From positions 1-27,724 of IMG/VR virus record IMGVR_UViG_3300031672_000008: 27,724 nt of DNA; one strand, written 5' to 3'. Below, in pieces: positions 7,907-27,724 of the stretch. The notes beneath the pieces were generated by a model. It had not been told where the DNA came from. It did not search any database and saw only the letters and a list, made by a program, of their open reading frames with translations. This DNA comes from a virus (lineage: Duplodnaviria > Caudoviricetes). Each line of letters starts with the position of its first letter. Position 1 is the stretch's first letter. A program made the position numbers and the translations under genes.

Positions 7907-10900
7907 ATGGCTGGGCCAGGAACAAGCACGAACGCTCAGGGCACGAACGCGCCTATGAACGATAGCGTCACGATCGCTACTGATGGAACAGCGGTCGTAC
8001 TCTGGTATGATGGCACCAACCAAAATTTTTCCTACGCTTCTTCCCCGTATACCAGTTGGACGACCACAACCCTGACCACTGGCTTTCGTTTCGCCTCGGC
8101 CGCAAACATTATGGCATCTGACAACGTACACACGGCGGCAAACCTGACATCTGGGCCACTGACGTATTTTCCTCTCACAAAATCCGGTACGTCTTACAGC
8201 ATTGGCGCAGGCACGCAGATTAGTTCAGCATCAAGTACGTATTCGCCAGGGCAAGCAGGTATCTATATCCGCGATGGGCAGAGCCGCGACTGGGTAGTGA
8301 CAAATACCAATGCGTCAACGGTTGTGCGTGCATTTTATGCAACCTCTCCGGGTACAGCCTGGACAAGCAGCCTGAGCCTGACTGCGCAAGGTGGATGCAT
8401 CGGTATGCCGGTTGCTGATATTGTCGGCAGTTATCTGGTCGTTTGTTATTTGAATTCGTCAATTGCTGGAACGTTTCGTTATGTTGATATTTCTAGCGGT
8501 ACGGTTGGTTCATGGGTAGCAGCGGCGGCAATTACGAATTGCACGGGCGACAATACCGCGACGTACTGCTTTCGCGGCAATGACAATACGAAGGGTATTC
8601 TTGCTTACAACTTTGGCGGCATTCAGGCGCAGGTATTTGATTCCACGGCGGTAAGTTGGAGTACCGTCACGACGCTTGACAGCAACGCAAACTCGCGTAA
8701 TGCCACATTGGTTTCAGCTGGTGATGACATCTACTGCTTCTGGTGCCAGTATAACGCGGCGAACAACTACGCGCTGGTCTATAAGAAGTGGACATATGCA
8801 ACTGCTACCTGGGATACGAGCGCGACGACGCTCGTTGCTTCTGGAACAAACATCAATTTCCCACAGGCCGGGTACGGCAATGGAACAATTATGGTTGCTT
8901 ATACGGTCGGAACAGCATCACCCTGGACGATCAGCGTGGCAACAATAACGCTGACAAGTACGTCAGTGCGCACAATCTCTTGTACAGCAGCATTGCAATC
9001 TACCTCTACACGTGTAATCAGCGGTGGGTTATCTTTTAATAGCGCGGCGCTTGCGTTGACTTCCGCACGTACGATCACACTCACCGGGTCGCTTTCAAGC
9101 GGAGCAGCAGCACGTACTATTCCGGCAACTGGGGCATTGCTTCAAACATCAGCACGCACGTTTGGCACAACTGGGGCTTTTCTTTCATCTGCGGCTCGCA
9201 CAATTGGCGCAAGTTGTGCGATGCTTCAGCCATCAGCGCGTACTGTTCCGGCAACCGCCGCGGTTGGTGGTGGAACAAGAACTATTCCTTCAAGTGGAGC
9301 AATCCTTGAAATAGGGGTGTGCTCTCTTTCCGCGACCGTCTCGGTATCGCAACAAGCATCACGCACGATTCCAACAACCGTTGCGCTTCTTGCGATAAAA
9401 ACGCGCACGATGGCAACAACCGTTGCTGTCCTTCTTCCGGCAGCACGTTCCGTGAGTCAAACATCCGCGCTTGGAACAACAGCAGGACGCACGATTGCAA
9501 TAACTGGGGCGATTGGGCAAACAGCGGTACGCTTGATACTAACGACCAGTGCGCTTTTGCAGGTAGGAACGCGAACCATTGGAGATACGGCGGCGCTCCT
9601 GTCAGCAGCTCATCGAACTATTCCACTTACAGGTGCGCTTCTTGCACAACGAACGATTCCGGTAAGTGCAGTAGCTTTACTCACATCTGCACGGGTTGTT
9701 TCTGCAACAGCAGCACTCTTGCAAACGCCAGTACGCACAATGACGGGAACAGGTGCGCTCCTGCAAACGTCAGTGCGCACCATTCCAGGAACTGTCGCAC
9801 TGCTGACGCAAAATCAAGCACGCACGCTTGGAGTGACGGGTGCACTGCTTCAAACGAGTGCCAGGACAATTTCCTGTACCCTATCGCTTTCATTGACGGG
9901 AAATTATACACGGACTATTCCTGGTACGGGTGCTCTGCTTCAGACAAATCAGCGGGTGATTGCTGCTACGGTGGCAGTACAGACAACGGGGTTGTCGAGA
10001 ACGGTTGGAGCAACTACGGCAATTGGCTTCACGTTCACACGGGTACTGCCATCGTCCGCAGCGATGGTGCAAACAGGAACTCGTACGCTTTCAGCAACAG
10101 CCGCGGTGCTTTTGAGGACTTCTCGAACGGCAGCAAGCTCAAGCGCACTCGTGCAAACAGGAACGCGCGCGGTATCGGAAACGGCGGCGTTGTCTGGTTC
10201 TTTTGTGCGCACGGTTTCGCTTTCAGTGACGCTTTCTGGTGGAACGCGCAGTATTCCAGCAACGATTGCTATTCTAAAAACGGCTGTGCGTCTGGTATCA
10301 GCAAATGGAGCAGTCCAACAAACTGGTTCCCGGAATATTCTTGCCTCTGTTGCTTCTCTGCAAACGGCAGTTCGCACAGTTGGAACGAGTTGTACTGCGC
10401 AAACAACGATGGCACGAACGGTTTCCGCAACAGCCGCGTTTGGAGCTGGAGCAGCACGCATGTGCCCTGCAACGGTTGCACTGTCACTTGTTGGTTTTCG
10501 TAGCATTGCGCTCACGGGGGCGTTGGATAGTTCCCTCTATCACAGTATCGGAACAAGTGTTTCGCTGGTGCAAACACAGGCACGATCTGTTGCATCAACG
10601 AGTGCATTGTTGTCTATAATGGGGCGGTCGCTTGGACTTTCGGCAGCGGTGTTGAGTACGAGTGAAAGGCAAACGGCAGCGTCTGCGGCACTGTTGCAAA
10701 CGGCAACACGCGGAGTTTCTGATGATAGTGCGCTTCTTGCAACATCATCACGAACTATTCCAGCGACGGCGCACCTGGAGACTTCCGGGTTTAATCTGCT
10801 GCGGGCGATTGCAGCAGATGCGGCATTGCAGCAAACAACACGGCGCATAGTGCTTTGCTCGGTTGTGTTGCTGTCGGCAAATGCGATGGTTCTTTTGCGG

Positions 10901-11044
10901 AGCGGAAAAGGGGATATGCGTCTGCGGAGCGGAAAAGGGGATATGCGTCTGCGGAGCGGAAAAGGGGATATGCGTCTGCGGAGCGGCTCCGCGAGTCTTC
11001 AGACGCGCAGCGGGAAAGCGGATGTACGCGCCCGCACGTCTTGA
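7907..11044 (+). CDS. Large Thr/Ala/Ser-rich probable virion fibre or adhesin: beta-rich N-terminal domain plus about 40 degenerate 15-17-aa repeats
   Basis: AGGAG RBS. The first ~350 aa contain propeller-like S/T-W-T/S motifs; from ~8969 the repeats have consensus RTIxATAALLQTxx; the C-terminus has LRSGKGDMR repeats. Confidence 0.7.
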   Translation: MAGPGTSTNAQGTNAPMNDSVTIATDGTAVVLWYDGTNQNFSYASSPYTSWTTTTLTTGFRFASAANIMASDNVHTAANLTSGPLTYFPLTKSGTSYSIGAGTQISSASSTYSPGQAGIYIRDGQSRDWVVTNTNASTVVRAFYATSPGTAWTSSLSLTAQGGCIGMPVADIVGSYLVVCYLNSSIAGTFRYVDISSGTVGSWVAAAAITNCTGDNTATYCFRGNDNTKGILAYNFGGIQAQVFDSTAVSWSTVTTLDSNANSRNATLVSAGDDIYCFWCQYNAANNYALVYKKWTYATATWDTSATTLVASGTNINFPQAGYGNGTIMVAYTVGTASPWTISVATITLTSTSVRTISCTAALQSTSTRVISGGLSFNSAALALTSARTITLTGSLSSGAAARTIPATGALLQTSARTFGTTGAFLSSAARTIGASCAMLQPSARTVPATAAVGGGTRTIPSSGAILEIGVCSLSATVSVSQQASRTIPTTVALLAIKTRTMATTVAVLLPAARSVSQTSALGTTAGRTIAITGAIGQTAVRLILTTSALLQVGTRTIGDTAALLSAAHRTIPLTGALLAQRTIPVSAVALLTSARVVSATAALLQTPVRTMTGTGALLQTSVRTIPGTVALLTQNQARTLGVTGALLQTSARTISCTLSLSLTGNYTRTIPGTGALLQTNQRVIAATVAVQTTGLSRTVGATTAIGFTFTRVLPSSAAMVQTGTRTLSATAAVLLRTSRTAASSSALVQTGTRAVSETAALSGSFVRTVSLSVTLSGGTRSIPATIAILKTAVRLVSANGAVQQTGSRNILASVASLQTAVRTVGTSCTAQTTMARTVSATAAFGAGAARMCPATVALSLVGFRSIALTGALDSSLYHSIGTSVSLVQTQARSVASTSALLSIMGRSLGLSAAVLSTSERQTAASAALLQTATRGVSDDSALLATSSRTIPATAHLETSGFNLLRAIAADAALQQTTRRIVLCSVVLLSANAMVLLRSGKGDMRLRSGKGDMRLRSGKGDMRLRSGSASLQTRSGKADVRARTS
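10896..10986 (+). repeat. 27-nt tandem repeat, 3 full copies plus 10 nt
   Basis: TGCGGAGCGGAAAAGGGGATATGCGTC x3 identical, encoding LRSGKGDMR. Confidence 0.95.
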
Positions 11045-15958: not shown

Positions 15959-18900
15959 ATGGCAAATATATTTCAAAGCACCCGCGATTTTATGCAATCC
16001 CTCCTACCTGCACCTCTGCGCAGGAACCTTCCCACTGCCCAGAAGGATGACCCGGCATACCAAAGCTACGTGCAATTCCTCGGTCTTGGTCAGCCTATCT
16101 ACACCCCACGTGACTTTCAAGTCATGGCGAAAGAGGGTTATGAGCGTAACCCAACTGTATTTCGCGCAGTAACGCTTATCTCACAGTCATGTGCCGGCAT
16201 TCCCTGGAAGCTGTATAAAAAAGGGGATGATATGCGCAGTATAGAAGAGCATCCTTTGCTTGACTTACTGGCGCATCCGAACCAGCGCAACTCCGGCCCG
16301 GAGTTCATTGAACATATGATTTCTTACTGGATTCTCTCTGGCAACAGCTATGTCTCCGCCGTTATCCCCAACCCACGCCAGCCTCCGACTGAACTCTGGT
16401 GTTTGCGTCCTGACCGCATGCGGGTTATTCCTGGGCAGGGAACAATCTGGGGGTACGAATATAACGTTGATGGTTACAAAACGTTCTTTGATGCGGATAC
16501 GACGATGCATTTAAAGATGTTTGCTGCGACGAACGACTGGTACGGGCTTTCGCCTATTGCGGTAGCCGGTGCGCTGATTGACCAGCAGAATGAAGGATTT
16601 GACTGGAACACGGCTATCTTACAGAACGCAGGTCGTCCATCCGGGGCGTTGGTGGCATCTGGCGTGCTGGTAAACGACCAGTATGAACGATTAAAGCGAA
16701 TCTTACGTGAGCAGTATGCCGGGAAACGCAATGCCGGGAAGCCAATGTTGCTGGAAGGCGGGTTGGACTGGAAGCCGTTTTCGCTCTCTCCGCTGGAGTT
16801 AGACTGGATTGAGAGCCGCAAAATCAATATGCGCGATATCGCGGTTGCGCTCGGCGTACCGTCTGAACTGCTCGGCGATGGTGATATAAAGACCTATTGT
16901 TTGCCGTACACAATGAAAATTTACACAGAACATGGTCCGAAGATGATTGGCGAAGTTCGTCCTGGTGAACGGGTGTTTTCTCTGGAAGATGGGAAAATGA
17001 CGCTCAAGACGATTACGCGCCAATCGAAAACAGGCCGGAAACAAATTTATAAAATTACTGCCGGTGGAAAGACGCTTCGCACATCCGGGAATCACCCGTT
17101 CCTTGTGCGTCTTGCTGAAAAATCTGGCACCAAACAGATGAGTCCTTATGCGTATCGTCTGGAATACAAACACGCCGATGAATTGCAAATCGGGGATGTT
17201 GTCGTATCGGCATATGAATACCCTGATCTGGCAACGCCGTATAGTCCGCATCCCGTCACTGAAGATAGCATGGAATTGCTTGGTGCTCTTCTGGGAGATG
17301 GCTTCATTAAGGATTATGGGAACGGAAACGCGCTGGTAAGCATTGCTGGTATTGATGGCGAGGTGCGAGATACGTATGCGCGTATTGCCAAAGATTTGTT
17401 TACAAAGGTAAACGGTTCACCTATCAACCTCAAAACGTATGAGCGTGAAGTACGGTTCGTTTCAAAATCTGCTGTGACCTGGTTGCAGGATATGTGTATC
17501 GCGGGAACGGCGCAGAGCAAACGTATTCCTGGGTGGGTTTTTACACAGCCATGCCATTTACGCCTGGCATTTTTGCGCGGCCTGTTTGATACTGATGGCT
17601 CGGTTGATAAAATGGGGCATATATCATTTCACGTGAACAACGAGCAACTGGCACAGGGATGCCGTGACCTGGCGTTATCCTGCGGGCTGCAAGTATCGAA
17701 TATGCAACATAGCGACCGTATGACAAAACTTTCCGGAAAAGAAGTGGCTGTACGCAATGAACTCTGGGGCTTTTTATGTACGGTAGCGCAGCTGAATCTG
17801 GAAGTCGGTTCGCGCAACCCACTTGACCAGCAACGGCTTGAAGCGAACGCGCATCGAGTGTTCAAGGGTCGTCGCATGGCAATAAACGGGCGCAATGCCG
17901 GTATTGCTGCACCAGAACATTGTGAATATCTGTCGGTAAAAGCGATTGAAATTCAGCCACCAGAAGACGTGTATGACATTGAAGTAGAAGGGTCGCACAA
18001 CTTCTTTGCCGAGCATATCTGTGTTCACAACTCGAATTACGGCGAGGCGCGTAAGAGTTTTTACCAGGAAACTATTCTTCCGATGATGGATAGAATAGTG
18101 GCAAAACTCAATACCTGGCTAGTGCCGATGTTCGATAACACGCTGAAACTTACCTATGACAAAGAAGAAATTGAGGCGCTCCAGGAAGACCGCGATGCAT
18201 TATCGTCGCGTATGCTCGGCCAGTATGAACAAGGCGTTATCACGCTCAACGAGGTACGCAACGCGCTTGGATTGGAGCAGTTCGATGGTGGCGATATTTT
18301 AATGATTGGCCTGGCTGGAAAAGTCTATATCCCGTCCGACCAGTTAGCGGAGTACGTGGAAAAGAAACTAGAAGATTTGATGGCTCCGCCTGCGCCACAA
18401 CCGGCAGCCGCACCAGCCGGACCAACGAACTTACCGGATACAAATAAGCCAACGACCGATACAGCAGGAGCGAACGCGAACGTTGGAAAAGAAATTAGCG
18501 ACACAGGGCAAAATACTCCAACAAAACCTGCGGCGAACGCAGGTGGCGGAAATCCGGCTCAAGGAGCGCCGCCACCTGTTCAAGGACAGCCGGCACAGGC
18601 AGCACCAGCTGGTGCATCCGCACCTCTAGAAAAGATGGCGGAAGCAGCAAGCCCACGCGATGCTGCATATTTGCTGCTGCGCAAGAATTTGCATGGGTAT
18701 CTCGCACGCGAAAAACAGATTGTTCAGACAGCTGTTACGAATGCAGCTTTTCCGCAGACGGCCTATGATCGGGCAGAGATGGCGCTGAAGGCGTACCGCC
18801 AGCAGGAACTACTCCCCTTGTTGCTGCGTGTCTATCGCATCATTGGAGCGTCTGCCTTTCAGGTAACGTGCGATCAGATACTTGGCATGGCTGCAATGAA

Positions 18901-21661
18901 AACTTCTTTCTGGAACGCAGATGCGCGTGACACTGCTGCATTGTGGGCACGGAAAGTATTGCCGGAACTCACAGAAAAAGCACTTCTGTTGCTAGCTGAA
19001 GTCCTTACCATTGGCGTAAAACGTGCCGAATTATTGCCCGCCTTATGTGATCGTGTAGGGCAGCTTTATATGGAAGAATTGCCAGATGCCATGGACGAGT
19101 TGCTACAGACATACGCGACGCAAATCTATAACGCGGGTGCGCAACAAGGAGCACTTTCAACCGGTGTGGTACTTGAGAAGCGTTGGCATCTGCATGCGGC
19201 TTGCATGCAGCATACTATCTGCCGTCAGGCTGACGGTATGCTGGTAAATGTATATGACCCATATAAGTGCGGCGAAGCGAAATTTATGTACCCAGCTGAT
19301 GCTGCACAAGGGACGCCTATCTATGGATGCAGATGCTACGAGACCTATTCCTCGATTCTCCCGCGTGAGCAAAAGTATCAGCCAGAAATTTTGCGCGTAC
19401 ATATCGTCACTGTTTTTAAGCAACAGCTTGTCAGGTATAACGACAGCGAACGGCAGGCTGTCATTGCGGCTGTACGGCACGCCGCTTTGCCGCAACTGGC
19501 ATACGAGCAAGCAGCACAAGTAATAACAACGCTGCACGCACGTGAATTAAGTCCGTTGTTGATGCAGATGTATCGTGCGATTGGCACAGCTGGCGCGCTC
19601 TCGGCACGAAGTCGTGTGGCGCGCCAGCTTGTCACGGGGCAGAAGGCAGCAGCGGATTTTACCTTCTGGACGCAGCCTGTACAGTCAATGTTTCAGAAAC
19701 GCTTTTCACCGATTATGCAAATGTTGACGCAGAAAGCACTCACGCAGCTGAAAAAGGCGATTGGCATCAGCAGTGCGAAGCTAGCAACTATTGAGCAGAT
19801 AGCGGCCGCTATAGATACAGTATATATGCAGCAGTTAGATGCCTATTTAATGATGCTGGCCGAGACGGAAACGACCTTTTCCTTTAATGCTGGTGGACAG
19901 ATTGGAGCCGCCAGTTTCGCTCTACCTGTGACGAAAATGTGGATGACTATGCAGGATAGCCATGTGCGTGAGGCGCACGCGGAGGCAGAAGGCCAGGAAC
20001 GGCCTCTAGGGGAACCGTACAATGTTGATGGCGAAGAATTGATGCATCCTGGGGACGACAGTATGGGTGCAAGTTCTGGGAACACGATCAATTGCCGGTG
20101 TGTCGAAAATTATATTGTTTCTCCACCCGTGGCAAATCCCCCTTCTGTCGCTGCACCACCGGCTGAAGACTCCACGGACAACGCGGAATATGCGGCGTTG
20201 CAAGAAGCTGCTGATATGACCGATCAGGGCGTGACGACTGTGTACAATGACCTTGCACAATATGAGTCATCGGCAGCTCAATATGATGATCGTGCACCCG
20301 TTGTCCCTTCGTCCGTAAAAGACAACGGGTTGGAAATCAGTCATCATCGTGCGATGATGACTGATAGAGAGCCTGATGAAAGCAATGGGCATCAAAGCTC
20401 TTCAACACAGAAAAACGCATCTGGGCGCGTCAAGCTTAATACTATACACGATGAGCATGGTCGCTTTGGCAGTGGAGGCGGAGTTGCGAGTCTTTTTCCA
20501 ACAACATCTGGATCGGTGCATCATGATGTTGTTGGAATTGCGGCAGCATTGCGCCAGGCGGCAGTTGCTCATGAGCAACAAGTAACAGCAGCTTGTCAAC
20601 ACGCCTGCCAAGTTGCCAATCACGGTGGAAAATTACAGGGATTGGATTTTCGGTTAAAATCGCCTGATAGTTTGCAACGAAAGATTGCCACTGATGCGGC
20701 AGAAACGTTTCTTCCGCCGGAACAGGCTGCGCAAAATATTCATGATGCGCTTCGCTATACAACGGTGATTGATGGCGACGGATATCAAGCAGCTGCACAA
20801 GCGTCGCTCGATGCGCTCAAAGCGCAGGGATATCAGGTTGAACGTTTGCGCAATACCTGGGAGACGCCTGGTTACAGCGGCGTCAATGTCGCAATGAAAA
20901 CGCCGGATGGGTTCAATTTCGAGATGCAGTATCATACATCACAGAGCTTCGCAACAAAAGAAGCTGTTCATCCACTCTATGAGCAGTATCGTGTACTGCC
21001 TGTAAGTAATCCAACGGCACTGGCGCTTCAGCAACAGATGAATGCGTTGTTTGCAAGTGTGACACCACCACCTGGGGCCGGTTCTGTTCACAAACACGCT
21101 GTGATGCTTCATGAAGAAAAAACTTCTAGTGGCACAACGTATTATGGTCTGATGCTTGGCAGCTTAGATACGATTGTTACGCTGTACCGGGTTGTACGAA
21201 ATACAGATAATTTAGTAACAGCGCTTGACGGGTGTAATGCAACACATGGTTGGACAGATGCACATGGGGCGTTAATGATGCTTTCAGAGAGCCCATATGT
21301 TCGCCAGCTGACATCTGTTGAAGCACAGGAGGTTGCCGAGCGTTTCGGAGTAGAAACAAAACAAATCGTCTACCGTGCTATCCGTAATGGGCAAGAAAGT
21401 GTTGCACTCTTCCGTAGCCACATTGGTGAAGCCGTTATCGAGCAGCAGAAAACCTATGCCTTACGGAGTGATGCGGTACTGCGCACTTCTCTTACAGTGA
21501 AGGATGCACTCGTCGCTATACATATTCCGGTTTTTACGGAGCAGATGCAACAGGCCGCGCACGAAGTGGTGTTTCCTGATGGTCAGGCGTTTCTTATTCG
21601 TACCGTGACAGATAGCGGGCTTGCCGCTCCAATAGTAATTGAGCTTGAGGCGGTGTCATGA
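15959..21661 (+). CDS. HK97-type portal protein with intein, fused to two MuF-like domains, a RelA/SpoT-like synthetase and putative immunity/unknown domains
   Basis: Portal motifs (NPTVFRAV, HPLLDLLAHPN, LSGNSY, LRPDRM, YGLSPI, NAGRPSG, LLEGGLDW, LGVPSELLG, GVITLNEVR); Pro/Ala linker; MuF motifs KMWMTMQDSHVRxAH...HPGD...INCRC; synthetase motifs RLKSPDSLQRK, DALRYT, GYSGVN, FEMQYHT. Confidence 0.9.
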   Translation: MANIFQSTRDFMQSLLPAPLRRNLPTAQKDDPAYQSYVQFLGLGQPIYTPRDFQVMAKEGYERNPTVFRAVTLISQSCAGIPWKLYKKGDDMRSIEEHPLLDLLAHPNQRNSGPEFIEHMISYWILSGNSYVSAVIPNPRQPPTELWCLRPDRMRVIPGQGTIWGYEYNVDGYKTFFDADTTMHLKMFAATNDWYGLSPIAVAGALIDQQNEGFDWNTAILQNAGRPSGALVASGVLVNDQYERLKRILREQYAGKRNAGKPMLLEGGLDWKPFSLSPLELDWIESRKINMRDIAVALGVPSELLGDGDIKTYCLPYTMKIYTEHGPKMIGEVRPGERVFSLEDGKMTLKTITRQSKTGRKQIYKITAGGKTLRTSGNHPFLVRLAEKSGTKQMSPYAYRLEYKHADELQIGDVVVSAYEYPDLATPYSPHPVTEDSMELLGALLGDGFIKDYGNGNALVSIAGIDGEVRDTYARIAKDLFTKVNGSPINLKTYEREVRFVSKSAVTWLQDMCIAGTAQSKRIPGWVFTQPCHLRLAFLRGLFDTDGSVDKMGHISFHVNNEQLAQGCRDLALSCGLQVSNMQHSDRMTKLSGKEVAVRNELWGFLCTVAQLNLEVGSRNPLDQQRLEANAHRVFKGRRMAINGRNAGIAAPEHCEYLSVKAIEIQPPEDVYDIEVEGSHNFFAEHICVHNSNYGEARKSFYQETILPMMDRIVAKLNTWLVPMFDNTLKLTYDKEEIEALQEDRDALSSRMLGQYEQGVITLNEVRNALGLEQFDGGDILMIGLAGKVYIPSDQLAEYVEKKLEDLMAPPAPQPAAAPAGPTNLPDTNKPTTDTAGANANVGKEISDTGQNTPTKPAANAGGGNPAQGAPPPVQGQPAQAAPAGASAPLEKMAEAASPRDAAYLLLRKNLHGYLAREKQIVQTAVTNAAFPQTAYDRAEMALKAYRQQELLPLLLRVYRIIGASAFQVTCDQILGMAAMKTSFWNADARDTAALWARKVLPELTEKALLLLAEVLTIGVKRAELLPALCDRVGQLYMEELPDAMDELLQTYATQIYNAGAQQGALSTGVVLEKRWHLHAACMQHTICRQADGMLVNVYDPYKCGEAKFMYPADAAQGTPIYGCRCYETYSSILPREQKYQPEILRVHIVTVFKQQLVRYNDSERQAVIAAVRHAALPQLAYEQAAQVITTLHARELSPLLMQMYRAIGTAGALSARSRVARQLVTGQKAAADFTFWTQPVQSMFQKRFSPIMQMLTQKALTQLKKAIGISSAKLATIEQIAAAIDTVYMQQLDAYLMMLAETETTFSFNAGGQIGAASFALPVTKMWMTMQDSHVREAHAEAEGQERPLGEPYNVDGEELMHPGDDSMGASSGNTINCRCVENYIVSPPVANPPSVAAPPAEDSTDNAEYAALQEAADMTDQGVTTVYNDLAQYESSAAQYDDRAPVVPSSVKDNGLEISHHRAMMTDREPDESNGHQSSSTQKNASGRVKLNTIHDEHGRFGSGGGVASLFPTTSGSVHHDVVGIAAALRQAAVAHEQQVTAACQHACQVANHGGKLQGLDFRLKSPDSLQRKIATDAAETFLPPEQAAQNIHDALRYTTVIDGDGYQAAAQASLDALKAQGYQVERLRNTWETPGYSGVNVAMKTPDGFNFEMQYHTSQSFATKEAVHPLYEQYRVLPVSNPTALALQQQMNALFASVTPPPGAGSVHKHAVMLHEEKTSSGTTYYGLMLGSLDTIVTLYRVVRNTDNLVTALDGCNATHGWTDAHGALMMLSESPYVRQLTSVEAQEVAERFGVETKQIVYRAIRNGQESVALFRSHIGEAVIEQQKTYALRSDAVLRTSLTVKDALVAIHIPVFTEQMQQAAHEVVFPDGQAFLIRTVTDSGLAAPIVIELEAVS
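16898..18031 (+). mobile_element. Intein (378 aa) with LAGLIDADG homing endonuclease in the portal
   Basis: Starts CLPYTMKIYT; block B TSGNHPF; LLGALLGDG and FLRGLFDTDG motifs; ends VYDIEVEGSHNFFAEHICVHN followed by Ser. Removal restores KTY-SNY. Confidence 0.95.
20432..20476 (+). repeat. Peptide tag copy 1: KLNTIHDEHGRFGSG
   Basis: Precedes the RelA/SpoT-like domain. Confidence 0.9.
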
Positions 21662-24333
21662 TAGGCCAGTACGATGTGCAAGGTGGGCAACAGGTGTTCC
21701 TTGATCGGTATTTCGTACAGACGCAAGGAGTATTTGCTGATCGCTATAGCGCAGATGATGCGAGTATTCTAGAAGTGTACTGGTGGAATAACGCAGCGAT
21801 AGCAAAACTTTTTGCACAGAAATTCAATGATAATCACGATGAGCATGGACGTTTTGGTAGCGGTAACGGCGCTCCTGCCAGTTTACAAGAAATGAAAAAA
21901 GCCTATGCGACCTGGCAAAAAGGGTTAACGCCTGCTGAAATACGGGCTTTCCGTACGTATACGGGGAAGTCACCGGAAATGGCTAATGAGCAATTGCGTG
22001 CTGGAGGAACTATCACCGCTGCGGCACAACGGGTTATTGACCCGCTTACTTCTGCGCTTTCTAAGTCGGAAGCACCTCGTGACTTAACTGTCTATCGAGG
22101 TATGAAATTCAATTTGATGGATGGGTATAAGGCAGGGGATACATTTATTGATAAAGGTTTTCCTTCAACATCGCTCTCCTATACGCAAGCGAAAGATTTT
22201 GCGGGGACGATTGGGGCAACGATTGCAACTATTTCGGTTAGCGCCGGTCAGCAAGGCGCGTATATCGGTTCGCTCGCTGGTCAGCATGAAGATGAACAGG
22301 AATTTTTACTTCCTTCCAACAGTGCTTTTCGCATTGATTCACTTAGCGCCGATCCTATTGCTTCCTGGCGGAATGTCACCCATCTTACCTATCTTGGTTC
22401 AGCTTCATCTTTCTCATCTGGGAAAGCGTATGCCGCTCAGCAAGAGACACATACTGGCGATAGTACGCGTGCGAGTCGCGTGAAAAATGACCAACAAGGT
22501 AATGGCATTGGCACCCAAATGCTTGTAACTGAGGCAGATCAGGCGTCAGCATTAGGGGTAACAGCAATAAAAGTAGAAGCAGAAGCTGGAGAAGGATATA
22601 ACGGCTACTATACCTGGGCTCGACTTGGCTACAATGCACCAGTATCTTCTCTTGCAACATACATGCCGGATTGGGCAACAAGCGAGAAAACCCTTTCTGA
22701 CGTGATGGCTCTTCCTGCGACAGCCGACCATCCGAGCGGGGCGTCCTGGTGGAAAGACAATGGTGTAACATGGCAGGGAACGTTTGATCTGACGCCAGGT
22801 AGCCGGTCACTCCAAATTCTCCATTCCTATGCGGATGCACGTGGCATTGTGCATAAGGCACAGGGTGATGTGATGAGCCATCTTTCTGATGAGAAACAGG
22901 AAGAAATACCCTGGAGCGATGAAGACGATGCGATTGCTGAACGTGTCTGGGTTGCGCTTGCTGCGAAGTGGAATTCCGAAAAGAAATCCAAAGAGCTACC
23001 CGACCCGCAACATACTTGCTTAATGGTTGCCTTCTTCCTCGATCACGCTACGGCCGAACAGTTAGCTCTTCCTGGGTATGAAAAACCGGAAGATTTGCAC
23101 GTGACGCTGGCAATGCTCGGCGAACGCGACCAGTATTCATCCGATGATATTTTCCGACTGCGGGAAGACTTGCTGCATTTCGCGAACGAAATGGGTCCGA
23201 TCACCGGAAAGATATCGGGCATCGGACGTTTTACCAGCGTTCCTGATGGTGAGCCAACGCCAGTCTATGCATCCGTTGACTGTCCTGGACTTCCTGACTT
23301 TCGTGGTGCACTCGCAGCGATGCTGGACGATACGGATTTTACCGTAGACGAGACGCATGGGTTTACGCCGCATATAACACTTTGCTATATTGACACGAAT
23401 GCACCGATGCCGGTTGAAGACATGCCGGAACTTGCAGTAAGGTTTACGAGTTTATGGCTGGCAAGTGGTGAAGAACGCTATGAGATGCCGCTTGCACCAG
23501 AAATGAAATTTAACGACACGCACGAATCTGATGGTCGTTTCGGTTCAGGTGGCGGGAGTGCAGATATTTCATCTCGCCAGCCGTCTGCTGCGTTTCGAGC
23601 AGCCTATAAAACTGCGCAAGATAGCGCCTACCAAACGTTTGCGGCAGCACATGCTATGACTGTTGCTGCGTATCGAACAGCCGTGAATGAGCATACGCAA
23701 AAACTCCTTGCAACTGCGTCACCGATGCTAAGAATATCCCCGCAAGGGTTATCCGGTGTGCTGGAAACAGGGCATGTCATGAACGCCTTTGAACGAAACG
23801 CCACGTTGGGAAAGAGTGAAGGTGTGACGTATCTTGATCCAGTAGGCCGGGCTAAAATGGAGCAGACCTTCTTTGGCTATGATCCAGCGGCTGCAAAAGA
23901 GACGTATCCGAACTACGGGTATTTGAGCACAAGTCCAACAGGAACTATTGCGGGGAAAGAGATTGCAAGTGGACGGTATGGATCGGTGGTGCTTCAGTTA
24001 GATGACTCGGTACGGGCAACAGCAACAGTCACGGCGAATGATTCGCTGAACATTACCCATATGGGGCGTAGTCCGAATCTCCTACCAGAGCCGCTTACTC
24101 GCCCGAATGGAGATATTTTTCCAACAACGATTGACCCGTTGACGGTAAAAAGTGTAAACTCGTATCAACCCTATTTTGAATTACAATTTCATAGCGGGGT
24201 ACCGTCTTCTGCTATTAAGTCTGTCTATTTTACTTCACGTGGAAGTACCACGTATGAACGGTATCAAATAGGCGAACTGCAAGACGCACTTGCAAAGGCT
24301 GGTATACCGTATACGTTCAAGGGAGGGAAGTGA
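21658..24333 (+). CDS. Polyvalent effector protein: VIP2-type ART, GNAT, 2H phosphoesterase and DUF3626-like domain
   Basis: ART triad VYRG (R 22096), STS (22165), EQE (22294-22302); GNAT QQGNGIG and GYYTWARLGY; 2H motifs HVTL (23098) and HITL (23371); C-terminal NYGYL...RYGSVVLQL...NDSL...YFELQFHSG. ATGA overlap with the portal gene. Confidence 0.85.
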   Translation: MIGQYDVQGGQQVFLDRYFVQTQGVFADRYSADDASILEVYWWNNAAIAKLFAQKFNDNHDEHGRFGSGNGAPASLQEMKKAYATWQKGLTPAEIRAFRTYTGKSPEMANEQLRAGGTITAAAQRVIDPLTSALSKSEAPRDLTVYRGMKFNLMDGYKAGDTFIDKGFPSTSLSYTQAKDFAGTIGATIATISVSAGQQGAYIGSLAGQHEDEQEFLLPSNSAFRIDSLSADPIASWRNVTHLTYLGSASSFSSGKAYAAQQETHTGDSTRASRVKNDQQGNGIGTQMLVTEADQASALGVTAIKVEAEAGEGYNGYYTWARLGYNAPVSSLATYMPDWATSEKTLSDVMALPATADHPSGASWWKDNGVTWQGTFDLTPGSRSLQILHSYADARGIVHKAQGDVMSHLSDEKQEEIPWSDEDDAIAERVWVALAAKWNSEKKSKELPDPQHTCLMVAFFLDHATAEQLALPGYEKPEDLHVTLAMLGERDQYSSDDIFRLREDLLHFANEMGPITGKISGIGRFTSVPDGEPTPVYASVDCPGLPDFRGALAAMLDDTDFTVDETHGFTPHITLCYIDTNAPMPVEDMPELAVRFTSLWLASGEERYEMPLAPEMKFNDTHESDGRFGSGGGSADISSRQPSAAFRAAYKTAQDSAYQTFAAAHAMTVAAYRTAVNEHTQKLLATASPMLRISPQGLSGVLETGHVMNAFERNATLGKSEGVTYLDPVGRAKMEQTFFGYDPAAAKETYPNYGYLSTSPTGTIAGKEIASGRYGSVVLQLDDSVRATATVTANDSLNITHMGRSPNLLPEPLTRPNGDIFPTTIDPLTVKSVNSYQPYFELQFHSGVPSSAIKSVYFTSRGSTTYERYQIGELQDALAKAGIPYTFKGGK
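21820..21864 (+). repeat. Peptide tag copy 2: KFNDNHDEHGRFGSG
   Basis: Precedes the VIP2-type ART domain. Confidence 0.9.
23506..23550 (+). repeat. Peptide tag copy 3: KFNDTHESDGRFGSG
   Basis: Precedes the DUF3626-like domain. Confidence 0.9.
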
Positions 24334-25397
24334 TGACGGTTATTCTAGGGTATAATCCGCTTATTCCAACGCAATATTTGCTTAAGGAAGAGCCAAAACT
24401 GGTTTATTCTTCGTATGCAAAGCAGACTATCAGTCTGCCGCAAGCCAGTATTTACGATCAACAGACAGGAAAAACAAGCGACCCTGAACTACTTGATAGT
24501 ATTTTAACTGATAACGCCTGGGCACAGTATACAGGGAAACTGACGGCGGAAGACCTCCTATCGGTAAAATTCAATTGGAAACAGGAGAAGCGCTATTTGT
24601 CGCCATACCAGCAGTTTATCGCGCTCTTTTACCCTGATGAAGAAAAGTTCAATGATGTTCACGACGAGCATGGACGCTTTGGCAGCGGAGGGACTGAAGT
24701 ACAACCGCAAAGTGTGGCGATAGTACATGCCGCTCAGCTTACTGTTGATGTATTGAAAAAGGACCATGCCGATGTTTTACTTGCAGCGCAACAGGGAGCG
24801 TTTGGTAAAGGACTCAAGGCATATGTAGGCGATATGACGGGAAACCTCAGAACGGCGGCCGTTTTTCACATGCAGGGCTTTGACGGCAAACCAACTATTA
24901 TGAATACAGCAGCCTTTGATGCGTATGTAAAAGGTGGTGCGACGGAGTTAATGCGCGGGGTATCATCGGAAACCTTTGCCGAACAATTTAAGTCCGGTGC
25001 GTATTTTGCCGGCGAAGGCATTGTTGGGAATGGAACTTATACAGCCTATGGGGACGGTATGTCGGCAGTTGCTCAACGTTACGCATCGTTAGGTGCTGCT
25101 GCATATGGAGATATGGGTGCAGTTTTGCGTTTGGCACTTGCACCAGATGCAAATGTTATTTCCCTACAAGATGCGGATTCTGGATATCAGCAATGGGCCA
25201 GAGCAACGAGCATAGCGCTTGATAATGAAGAAAACCAGTCACAGCGTTCTCTTTTGAAAGGAGCCGATAACTTAGTTCACGATCAGGGTACCTGGGCTGC
25301 ATTACAAGGGTATGATGCTATTCGTGTCGAGTACAATAATTTTTATATTGTTTTAAATCGCACAGCGGTTGCTGTTGATGGAGGGCCAAAAAAATGA
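24330..25397 (+). CDS. Two-part protein: small N-terminal domain, tag, then putative ART-fold domain
   Basis: GGGAGGG RBS; overlaps the upstream stop; C-terminal ELMRGV...GIVGNGTYTA...YA...GYDAIRV...YIVLNR is an ART-like motif order. Confidence 0.65.
   Translation: MMTVILGYNPLIPTQYLLKEEPKLVYSSYAKQTISLPQASIYDQQTGKTSDPELLDSILTDNAWAQYTGKLTAEDLLSVKFNWKQEKRYLSPYQQFIALFYPDEEKFNDVHDEHGRFGSGGTEVQPQSVAIVHAAQLTVDVLKKDHADVLLAAQQGAFGKGLKAYVGDMTGNLRTAAVFHMQGFDGKPTIMNTAAFDAYVKGGATELMRGVSSETFAEQFKSGAYFAGEGIVGNGTYTAYGDGMSAVAQRYASLGAAAYGDMGAVLRLALAPDANVISLQDADSGYQQWARATSIALDNEENQSQRSLLKGADNLVHDQGTWAALQGYDAIRVEYNNFYIVLNRTAVAVDGGPKK
24645..24689 (+). repeat. Peptide tag copy 4: KFNDVHDEHGRFGSG
   Basis: Precedes the last ART-like domain. 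Confidence 0.9.
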
Positions 25398-25594
25398 TAG
25401 ATGTCGCTCTTTCACGACAATTAGCGCATGCATTGAACGTCCCTGCGTTTTTTGCACTTCCGCGTGATGAGCAGGAACGCATTCGCGCGCTATTTCAGCA
25501 TGACGATCTAGCCGGTGTATTGTCGGATGCAGGAAAACAGGCACTTACCCGGCTTTCGGCGGAAAAAGGCGGGACGAACCAGCCCGCTGTATGA
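25394..25594 (+). CDS. Small helical protein, candidate immunity protein
   Basis: GGAGG RBS; ATGA overlap directly after a toxin-like domain. Function is inferred from position only. Confidence 0.55.
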   Translation: MIDVALSRQLAHALNVPAFFALPRDEQERIRALFQHDDLAGVLSDAGKQALTRLSAEKGGTNQPAV

Positions 25595-25600: not shown

Positions 25601-25637
25601 TGATAGAGGGGGATATATCCCAGAAAAGGAGTTTTTT

Positions 25638-25955
25638 ATGCCACGCAAAACACCGCCTGCCGCGAATGTCGCGGTACCCGTGAGCCCGAATCAGCCGCCG
25701 GTTGCGCCAGGCATTCCGCCTGCAATCAATAAACCAAAACCGCCAAAAAGTCCAGTGTCACCCGCTGCTGATGGCGGCACAGCTGCACCTGTCACCGGGC
25801 CAGGAACGTCTCCGATGAAACGAAGAAAAGCGGACGTTCCACCAGCTGCCGGTGCAAAACCAAATCCATTCGCAAAAAAACCGCCATCTACTGATGAAAC
25901 TCCACCGAAAAAGCCATTTCCTGGTGCGAAACCACCATTTCAGGCAAAACGTTGA
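25638..25955 (+). CDS. Pro/Lys/Ala-rich disordered protein (105 aa)
   Basis: AAGGAG RBS before ATG 25638; KPNPFAKKPP and KKPFPGAKPPF motifs. Confidence 0.7.
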   Translation: MPRKTPPAANVAVPVSPNQPPVAPGIPPAINKPKPPKSPVSPAADGGTAAPVTGPGTSPMKRRKADVPPAAGAKPNPFAKKPPSTDETPPKKPFPGAKPPFQAKR

Positions 25956-26304: not shown

Positions 26305-27724
26305 ATGCCATCCGCTGAAGTCATGGCTCCGCAGCAGAAAAGCATCCAGTTCGTTGAGTTGAAAACGTCTGATGATGAGCGGGGTATTTTTGAAGGCTAT
26401 TTAAGCGTCTATGGGAATATAGACACGTATAAAGATATTGTTGAACCCGGTGCATTTACGAAGACGATCAAGGACGCACGCGGGCGGAATGTCAAATACC
26501 TCTTCCCTCTCTTATGGCAGCATGACCCCAAAGACCCAATCGGCGGTATTATAGATATGAAAGAAACGCCAAAGGGTCTCTATATTCAGGCACAACTCGA
26601 CATCAACACTCCACACGGTGCGCAAGCCTACTCCGGCCTCAAAATGGGCTACCTCGATGGTCTCTCGTTCGGCTACGACACGATCAAGCACAAATACGAA
26701 GGAGACATTCGCCACTTACTGGAAGTCCGTATGTGGGAAGGTTCTGTTGTGACGTTTCCTGCTAACTCCGATACCCGTGTCACCGGCGTGAAAAGTGCAT
26801 GCGGCTCAACTTCATGGCCGCTTGGTGGGCGTGACGAAGCCTGGGATGGCGGCTCAGCACACGATCAGATCGTCACCTGGGCAACGAGTGGCGATACGCT
26901 CGACACCGGGAAGATGAAGTCAGTGCATTTTTATGTAGACGACAGCGCCGATACGAGTCTTGCCGGTTCGTATAAGATGCCTTTTTGCTATATTCGCGAT
27001 GGCTCTCCAGTTGCAATGCCCAAAGGGATTCAGGCGTGCGCTGGCGTCATGCAAGGTGCACGTGGCGGTGGTGATTTTGGAAGTGCTGATGGTGGAATGA
27101 AAAGCAAGATCGCCAGTTACTACCGGAAGATGGCAAAACAGTTTAATGACGACACTATCGTTGTACCGTGGGCGGCGACGAAAAAAAAGCGGAAAGAGTC
27201 TACTATGAAGAAAAAGAGTAAGAAAGACCTGGCGCTCGCTCCGGCTACCCCAATTACTCCAACACCCAGGCTTTTTACGGCTGTTCTTAATGACCGCAGC
27301 GCCTCCGACGTTCTCGATGACCTGTATGATCTCATGACGGCACTGATGACCTCTATTATGGAACAGGTGTCAGGAAGCACGGATGATGCAACATGCAAGA
27401 CAAACGTGGATACGTGTATGACACAGTTTCAATCGGCTATTGATGATTGGCTGAAAGAAGCACTTGCGGCGACAATGACTGATGATGACGGGGATGCATT
27501 CGACCTATCTATGAGCGTGTCGGATTCCCCCTCTGGCAGCGTCTCCGGCTCGGTTTCCGGCTCGGTTTCGGGTTCTGTTTCCGGCTCGGTTTCCGGCTCG
27601 GTTTCGGGTTCTGTTTCCGGGTCGGTTTCCGGGTCGGCGTCCGATTCGTCTTCGAGCGACTCGAAAGAAGCGCCTCCCCATGCGCGCAAGCGTACGCGCC
27701 TACGGCTTTCCCTGGCACATTTTT
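26305..27724 (+). CDS. HK97-family prohead protease (peptidase S78) with C-terminal extension; runs off the window
   Basis: GGAG RBS and ATG 26305; GIFEGYLSVYGNID...DIVEPGAF...LLWQHD (His 26521)...PIG...GLSFGY (Ser 26665)...EGSVVTFPAN; frame open to the window end. Missing from the ORF track because it has no stop. Confidence 0.93.
   Translation, partial: MPSAEVMAPQQKSIQFVELKTSDDERGIFEGYLSVYGNIDTYKDIVEPGAFTKTIKDARGRNVKYLFPLLWQHDPKDPIGGIIDMKETPKGLYIQAQLDINTPHGAQAYSGLKMGYLDGLSFGYDTIKHKYEGDIRHLLEVRMWEGSVVTFPANSDTRVTGVKSACGSTSWPLGGRDEAWDGGSAHDQIVTWATSGDTLDTGKMKSVHFYVDDSADTSLAGSYKMPFCYIRDGSPVAMPKGIQACAGVMQGARGGGDFGSADGGMKSKIASYYRKMAKQFNDDTIVVPWAATKKKRKESTMKKKSKKDLALAPATPITPTPRLFTAVLNDRSASDVLDDLYDLMTALMTSIMEQVSGSTDDATCKTNVDTCMTQFQSAIDDWLKEALAATMTDDDGDAFDLSMSVSDSPSGSVSGSVSGSVSGSVSGSVSGSVSGSVSGSVSGSASDSSSSDSKEAPPHARKRTRLRLSLAHF
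27532..27639 (+). repeat. 12-nt tandem repeat encoding (SGSV)x8-SGSA
   Basis: Units such as TCCGGCTCGGTT and TCGGGTTCTGTT; variation among the eight SGSV units is synonymous in the protease frame. Confidence 0.95.

Follow-up and report, generated by a model that had tools for sequence, protein, structure and literature searches.

A short peptide behind a predicted head-protease site precedes enzyme-like domains in a viral head operon

In the head operon of a tailed virus from soil, four enzyme-like domains are each preceded by a copy of the same short peptide, which itself follows a lysine at which the head protease of the virus is predicted to cut. The DNA in question, referred to here as the window, is a 27,724-nucleotide stretch of IMG/VR record IMGVR_UViG_3300031672_000008 (Caudoviricetes), a virus fragment of 27.7 kb with a CheckV completeness figure of 8%. 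The peptide, hereafter called the tag, is widespread and apparently undescribed, although the system on which it sits is of a known type. Of our results, the covariation of the residue preceding the tag with the head protease of the same locus is the strongest and the one that lends itself best to testing. Our preferred reading, to which we assign a probability of about 55%, is that cleavage after the lysine would free enzymes headed by the tag, which would then serve in their retention in the head or in their ejection.

Results

The tag copies begin at positions 20432, 21820, 23506 and 24645 and are all internal in their proteins; these positions, given in an initial annotation of the DNA, were confirmed by both pattern and profile searches. 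A degenerate pattern built from the four copies occurs exactly four times in the window and not at all in 100 shuffled versions of it (circular as a test of chance), and a profile of 80 tags, these four included, finds only these four in the contig, with E values of 5e-10 to 9.5e-8. Nine of the 15 residues are invariant, and more than one codon is used at eight of these nine; DNA identity among the copies is 56-84% within the motif, as compared with 17-38% in the flanking 60 nt on each side, in agreement with the annotated conservation of the peptide despite diverged codons. The copies had been described as lying in three coupled open reading frames (ORFs) between the portal and protease genes. 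The ORFs at 15959-21661, 21658-24333, 24330-25397 and 25394-25594 (ORFs A to D) do overlap by ATGA or GTGA, as expected for coupling, but the first copy lies inside a 1900-aa fusion of portal, intein and two MuF domains. It had also been stated that each copy precedes a different enzyme-like domain. This applies to the four tagged domains, namely the ORF A synthetase, the VIP2-type ADP-ribosyltransferase (ART) and the DUF3626-like domain of ORF B, and the ORF C domain, two of them being ART folds by prediction, but not to two further enzyme-like domains of ORF B: a GNAT-like domain, for which Pfam gives no better than E 0.17, and a 2H phosphoesterase (Pfam E 4e-9).

In other viruses, the tag is an 11-residue peptide, X-N-P-x-H-D-x-x-G-R-F, followed by a Gly/Ser linker and common in head operons; the proline after the asparagine is present in none of the four copies of the window. 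The strict pattern without the lysine matched at least 151 viral and at least 133 genome stretches (estimated totals, about 340 and 270), part of the genome matches being chance occurrences in unrelated genes or short frames. Contigs and loci that were compared carry labels beginning with L.

When the pattern was used without the lysine, lysine was found to precede the tag in all 29 copies listed (24 without two duplicate loci). It also precedes 109 of the 158 unique viral matches listed, as compared with a mean of 10.6 at ten other offsets; elsewhere, the preceding residue is R, D, N, E, A, L or H. In 23 of the 26 contigs with several copies, the preceding residue is the same in all of them (10.2 expected, p<=5e-5). 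We compared this residue with residues 15-17 after the E-x-S-x-V-x-x-P anchor of the protease of the same locus, a segment that in the window contains Lys163. For this comparison, 61 prohead proteases from tag loci were aligned, of which four were dropped (two truncated, one frameshifted and one with its anchor off the motif); our own alignments were used instead of a Pfam S78 scan, which found only eight proteases in 50 contigs and missed divergent ones.

The residue preceding the tag matches a residue at +15-17 of its own protease in 43 of the 57 contigs. At the level of lineages, the match is 11.2 of 16, as compared with 3.05 after shuffling (p<=1e-5), and with a looser lineage cut it is 6.4 of 10, as compared with 2.0 (p 1.7e-4), whereas 18 other three-residue windows score 0.6-5.1. 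Moreover, tag residue and protease end change together within lineages (N/L in Mu-like and K/H in S78 phages). The residue classes are K, R or H for S78 proteases, D or N for DUF2213, N or L for Mu-like and A or E for others; a phage with a ClpP-type protease (L364) has N at both of its tags and before its protease domain.

The S78 prohead protease of the window, which scores above the cut-off (TIGR01543 E 8e-34; Pfam value in Table 1), has a lysine at each end of its protease domain (aa 20 and aa 163). From the spacing in HK97 and T5, we take His73 and Ser121 to be its catalytic pair, the anchor Ser147 being a landmark only. Two close relatives, L500 and L501, have K at the capsid delta-domain junction. 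The HK97 protease cuts between K103 and S104 (PMC10275583), and the SPN3US protease removes its own C-terminal propeptide at the motif used in its substrates (PMC10052503). The S78 protease very probably cuts after the lysine before the tag, as it would at its own domain ends and at the capsid junction of the relatives, and the cut proposed in the initial annotation is thus supported by comparison among loci. The lysine is best read as part of the protease code of this phage; in other phages, another residue takes its place before an unaltered tag. A role of the tag as a determinant for the protease is unlikely, since no change in it is seen between S78, DUF2213, Mu-like and ClpP phages.

Head genes on other contigs were called with our own, limited profiles for portal, protease, MuF and terminase. 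At least one of these lies nearby on the same strand in 53 of the 64 viral contigs with flanks, and in none of them only on the other strand. In 18 of 222 cases, tag and cargo are fused to the prohead protease itself (e.g. L312, L320, L337, L364, L368 and L412). A Pfam family was found in 42 of 150 segments following a tag (sampled from 195): seven VIP2 ARTs, five ART-PolyVal domains, four zeta toxins, two topoisomerases IB, two LPD3 domains, single nucleases and peptidases, and seven head proteins. The closest relative found, a virus of 327 kb whose portal is 60% identical, contains the same domain types in a different array, where they are encoded separately and preceded by this or a sister tag, and its portal-MuF protein lacks the synthetase. 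It follows from the different array that the cassettes are exchangeable, and the proposed linkage of interchangeable cassettes to head genes is therefore upheld.

None of 80 tags matched Pfam at E<=10, and no Protein Data Bank chain was matched, queries of 21 residues being weak. Literature searches for tag strings and the motif gave no match in the main texts of the papers searched, although alignments in the supplement of Iyer et al. 2017 could hold the motif. A tblastn search of cultured phages with a 47-aa stretch containing the tag gave no match and thus identified no cultured carrier with virion data.

Several contigs from this survey deserve mention. The tag is also present in the archaeal-assembly contigs L237, L202 and L251, assigned to Nitrososphaera (with Glu, matching its protease end), Methanotrichaceae and Methanomicrobiales. 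At least four sister peptides occur in contigs that also have the main tag, and they follow the predicted cut residue that the main tag follows there: a D-x-x-Q-P-R type (L303, L306, L082, L331), a G-G-x-G-S-G type (L081, L204, L431), an H-x-x-G-x-H-D-Q type (L505, L058, L398) and DUF7211 (PF23847; L302, L323, L352). Like the tag, DUF7211 is a short conserved phage peptide following a predicted cut residue, His, in phages that also carry the tag; unlike it, DUF7211 has an unrelated sequence, and the Pfam line states no function for it. The alphaproteobacterial head clusters L080, L161, L182, L209 and L240, which resemble gene transfer agents, combine a portal C-terminus with Lys, tag and toxin, and they hold repeated spare cassettes in a manner resembling a polymorphic toxin locus. 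Finally, L366 (7685-19861) encodes a 4059-aa protein with five tags, all after Asn, and with 2H, zeta, papain-like, KptA and MuF domains.

Regarding the cargo of the window, the synthetase occupies aa 1522-1711 of ORF A, C-terminal to MuF and not as the last module of the chain. Its catalytic motifs are conserved, as in a Tas1-like RSH domain fused to MuF, and it is 40% identical over 156 aa to the MuF-fused toxin domain of a Streptococcus phage. Judged by its sequence, it is Apk2/SaSAS-like: SaSAS is the best structure match (8vx3, E 1.6e-21) and Tas1 a weaker one (E 0.005). An Apk2 enzyme in the strict sense would make (p)ppApp rather than (p)ppGpp.

The DUF3626-like domain reaches a Pfam E value of only 0.16, one relative scoring 7e-5, and a word-index search with this region gave no match. 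Its structural model (predicted local distance difference test, pLDDT, 88.5) is matched by SopF with Foldseek (E 1.5e-6) and with VIA (Z 13.2, root-mean-square deviation 4.5, 223 aligned residues), DarT following with Z 9.8. The ESM Atlas returned clusters without names only, with DUF3626 and ART-PolyVal as leads. The family, which has 5006 representatives and up to six copies per protein, is predicted to belong among the ADP-ribosyltransferase folds. As only 14 of the 150 best DUF3626-like proteins carry the tag (the window's own and the profile members counted), the tag is modular.

The ORF C domain, which matches no Pfam family, also occurs as the C-terminal domain of MuF-like proteins. Nearly all top rows for its model are ARTs, with a VIA Z of at most 7.4 and a best Foldseek E of 5e-3, and from these mid-range scores it is predicted to have an ART fold. 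ART folds would accordingly be present in three of the four tagged domains, one by sequence and two by prediction. The top fold match of the ORF C domain is a pre-ejectosome chain of cyanophage A4 (9k3a_B, Z 7.4), in which an ART-like domain may have gone unreported; given this Z value and the absence of 'ribosyl' from the main text of the paper on that structure, we have not used the likeness as support.

The cassettes had been proposed to include immunity proteins. This part stands best for residues 1-80 of ORF C, which are homologous to small genes behind two relatives of the DUF3626-like domain (hhalign E 6e-4, equalled by none of 100 shuffles); homology and gene order thus support this module as the candidate immunity protein for that domain. 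ORF D is a weak candidate for the ORF C domain, with an hhalign E of 0.054 and three of 100 shuffles as good. The 85-aa module behind the synthetase has the right size and sits where relatives carry a Tis1-like small gene, but its hhalign score was not significant (16 of 100 shuffles as good) and BLAST gave no match, so that its identity with Tis1 is not supported. An Aph1-like HD hydrolase was not found in the window.

Discussion

We have shown here that a conserved peptide precedes a variety of domains near viral head genes, and that the residue in front of it follows the head protease. We propose that the ORF A cargo probably enters the prohead within the portal/MuF fusion and the ORF B and C cargo by means of their leaders, and that the small modules behind the toxins would protect the producer cell and then be cut away. 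The tag, having become N-terminal upon cleavage, would bind a partner shared by unrelated bacterial and archaeal viruses, which would result in retention and ejection. This is the weakest step, for which we see even chances. DNA would be the simplest partner, given that viruses as different as these, among them archaeal ones (L237, L202), have the tag in common; a DNA-bound tag would hold the released enzymes inside the head and pull them along when the genome leaves. Going by their families, the injected ARTs, alarmone synthetase and 2H phosphoesterase would take over the host or blunt its defences.

It should be noted that several observations weigh against this reading. The +15-17 window was fixed with the data in view, loci without K were enriched on purpose, and XkdF and ClpP proteases fall outside the covariation test. 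Fourteen of the 57 contigs miss, some by an offset that a whole family shares (H at +19, N at +20), and L221, L033 and L295 are plain mismatches. Of 131 metagenome loci set aside as a held-out test, three provided new proteases that could be used; one of these matched at +15-17 and two at +15-21, which is not significant. One held-out match is a near-duplicate, and inspection by eye adds a further match at +16, one at a strand end and one miss. The 2H and GNAT-like domains of ORF B carry no tag of their own, and the tag is not confidently folded in either model (pLDDT 31-53). Nor does it have a net positive charge (mean -0.1 over 156 copies), which disfavours plain DNA binding. As to the cargo, a motif profile combined with tabulated downstream domains had been suggested as a check; the expected proximity to head genes was found, but 108 of the 150 segments have no Pfam family, so that the label 'effector' is not supported for most of them, and seven lead into head proteins.

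The initial annotation regarded the motif as a joint cleavage and packaging or ejection tag. The cut site at the lysine stands, but lysine and tag are separable, and a packaging role is disfavoured. If the tag were a packaging signal behind the same cut site, it would dock before cleavage on the scaffold, the inner face of the capsid, the portal or MuF. An address of this kind would be needed by the proteins with the 154 of 222 tags in whose ORFs no portal, MuF or protease was detected; of 151 first tags, 58 are no more than 40 aa away from the beginning of their ORF. HK97-fold heads, in addition, all have a common architecture. The remaining 68 of the 222 tags, however, are in ORFs that also hold one of these proteins, including cargo already fused to portal or MuF, and the tag remains constant across unrelated portals, capsids and proteases, while MuF was detected in only 13 of 25 loci having both portal and protease (the profile may miss some). 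Furthermore, the predicted cut would leave the tag on the cargo, whereas in T4 the targeting sequence is a propeptide that is removed (PMC9026906). We therefore regard a packaging signal as unlikely. Since the tag is also present on portal-fused cargo, loading may not be its only job, and we read it as a handle for retention or ejection after cleavage.

More doubtful still is a function in the infected cell, in which the new N-terminal Phe, Tyr or Leu would act as an N-degron that limits the life of the toxin, or the tag would dock on a conserved host protein. F, Y and L are indeed ClpS N-degron residues, and one of them is the first residue of the tag in 91 of the 158 viral matches listed and in all four copies of the window, but in 60 of the 158 this residue is A, G, E, M or S. 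Besides, many F-tags belong to phages and prophages of the Firmicutes type, and ClpS is absent from most Firmicutes; a degron would also not require the conserved H-D-x-x-G-R-F.

We are equally sceptical of a tag without a binding partner, that is, a shared linker that exposes the cut site and provides homology for cassette shuffling. This would suit its location at cassette borders, the Gly, Ser, Ala and Thr content of the 12 residues after it (61%) and the repeated portal-end-plus-tag cassettes in L182, L209 and L240. Yet diverging codons with kept residues are the opposite of what selection for DNA homology would give, and conservation of N, H, D, G, R and F between bacterial and archaeal viruses, or between S78 and ClpP proteases, would not be expected of a linker. 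Finally, it is very improbable that there is no protease cut, with the preceding residue reflecting lineage history or with self-cleavage at Asn-Pro, N-P-x-H resembling the NPTH motif of FlhB: kinship can make labels agree and the held-out test is small, but the match survives collapse into 10-28 lineages, at no segment other than that at the protease end, the Mu-like and S78 lineages show joint changes of tag residue and protease, and the window's own copies lack the proline.

The locus resembles known systems in several respects. MuF polymorphic toxins have been described by Jamet et al. 2017 (PMC5576092), and Ahmad et al. 2023 (PMC10083569) named the MuF-fused synthetase Apk2 in a MuF-Apk2/Tis1/Aph1 arrangement. 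In these systems, for which head loading has been proposed, MuF lies beside the portal and carries a fused toxin domain. In the window, similarly, a PF04233 domain is present in ORF A, fused to the portal, with the toxin domain, an Apk2-like synthetase followed by small candidate immunity modules, C-terminal to it. In contrast to those toxins, the MuF of the window is fused to the portal and doubled, its cassettes are in tandem with two ORFs lacking MuF, and each cassette opens with the common tag, itself preceded by a predicted protease site. The main text of Jamet et al. (PMC5576092) contains neither 'motif' nor 'cleav'.

The window also resembles the phage polyvalent proteins (Iyer et al. 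2017, PMC5512222; 2022, PMC9503650), for which ART, 2H, RelA/SpoT and GNAT domains in one chain and fusion to portal or MuF are described, and which are predicted there to be packaged and injected: ORF B combines ART, GNAT-like, 2H and DUF3626-like domains in one chain, flanked by portal and protease. Assemblin-like peptidases fused to polyvalent proteins have been proposed to process them (PMC5512222). Unlike what we find here, the main texts of these papers, supplements aside, stress zincin metallopeptidases and give no cut sites, shared tag or link between site and protease.

A third likeness is with T4 IPI-III and Alt, which are cut by gp21, and with the ejection proteins of SPN3US and phiKZ, in which head cargo, an ART included, is trimmed by the prohead protease at a motif that the protease itself uses, and is then ejected (PMC9026906, PMC10052503). 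In T4 and SPN3US, what is conserved is an N-terminal propeptide that is cut off and that is confined to one phage group (PMC9026906, PMC10052503), whereas in the case of the tag it is the retained part that is conserved, often internal, repeated and common to unrelated proteases. All four copies of the window are internal and C-terminal to the predicted cut, unlike a removed N-terminal propeptide of the T4 type.

A more far-reaching view, which we put forward tentatively, is that bacterial and archaeal tailed viruses might share a protease-independent cargo standard, in which each virus would place its own cut residue before N-P-x-H-D-x-x-G-R-F, the domain would be freed at head maturation and the exposed peptide would grip DNA. 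If true, the preceding residue reads out the specificity of unstudied head proteases (Asp/Asn for DUF2213, Asn/Leu for Mu-like, Lys/Arg/His for S78), and the same position is taken by at least four sister tags. The tag yields exact predicted cut positions and new N-termini, and it provides a sequence handle for listing head cargo in uncultured phages and for predicting head-protease specificity. According to PMC10083569, it is an open question how MuF toxins and polyvalent proteins pass through the narrow portal to leave the capsid, and even whether delivery takes place.

Other features of the locus

The features of the locus are collected in Table 1.

Table 1. Coordinates of the predicted features in and around the tagged array of the window.
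Feature	Position	Strand	Basis
ORF A, 1900 aa: HK97-type portal split by an intein, Pro/Ala linker, two MuF domains, tag 1, alarmone synthetase, two small C-terminal modules	15959..21661	+	Pfam, NCBIfam, PHROG; MuF self-similarity
Intein with LAGLIDADG endonuclease inside the portal, Cys314 to Asn691	16898..18031	+	Pfam, NCBIfam
Two MuF domains, about 18902-19378 and 19652-20128	18902..20128	+	Second: PF04233 E 4e-8; first: likeness to second, E 3e-8
Tag copy 1 and predicted cut site Lys	20432..20476	+	Pattern and profile searches
RelA/SpoT-type small alarmone synthetase, Apk2/SaSAS-like	20522..21091	+	8vx3 E 1.6e-21; MuF-toxin domain of Streptococcus phage
85-aa in-frame module, candidate fused immunity	21095..21361	+	Position matching Tis1-like small gene of relatives
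99-aa tail, ART-remnant-like by eye only	21362..21658	+	PHROG 2843 E 0.032 (family without known function)
ORF B, 891 aa: 54-aa leader, tag 2, VIP2 ART, GNAT-like, 2H phosphoesterase, tag 3, DUF3626-like domain	21658..24333	+	
Tag copy 2 and predicted cut site Lys	21820..21864	+	Pattern and profile searches
VIP2/Alt-type ADP-ribosyltransferase with R, S-T-S and E-x-E motifs	21895..22362	+	PF03496 E 2.3e-22
2H phosphoesterase, two H-x-T motifs, untagged	22999..23487	+	PF13563 E 3.8e-9
Tag copy 3 (H-E variant) and predicted cut site Lys	23506..23550	+	Pattern and profile searches
DUF3626-like domain, predicted ART fold of SopF/DarT kind	23575..24330	+	Model pLDDT 88.5; Foldseek; VIA
ORF C N-terminal 79 aa, candidate immunity protein for DUF3626-like domain	24333..24569	+	hhalign E 6e-4
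Tag copy 4 and predicted cut site Lys	24645..24689	+	Pattern and profile searches
ORF C predicted ART-fold domain, diphtheria-toxin/PARP-like clade by fold	24852..25379	+	Foldseek best E 5e-3; VIA Z 5-7.4
ORF D, 66 aa, candidate immunity for ORF C domain (weak)	25394..25594	+	hhalign E 0.054
S78 (HK97-type) prohead protease with scaffold-like extension, ends at contig edge	26305..27723	+	PF04586 E 4.6e-30

Two soil DNA runs, possibly the source of the window, agree across the cargo genes and leave the ORF junctions unchanged. In RNA runs, the region is covered patchily, as contigs, which does not evidence transcription. Most of the stretch corresponding to the portal intein is missing from the 327-kb relative. 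The overlap of ORFs C and D (25387-25397) contains a run of seven A residues, a possible -1 frameshift site, use of which would join the toxin to its candidate immunity protein.

Upstream of the portal, positions 7907-11044 encode a Thr/Ala-rich repeat protein of 1045 aa, with short tandem repeats at its end, for which Pfam, NCBIfam and PHROG gave no match. Tandem repeats of 12 nt at 27508-27663 encode Gly-Ser-Val-Ser in the scaffold-like tail of the protease, and the relative L500 has a similar Ser-rich tract. A Pro-rich ORF of 105 aa lies upstream of the protease at 25638-25955; its ATG at 25638 is favoured over a GTG at 25515 because one DNA run contains a 1-nt length variant at 25632.

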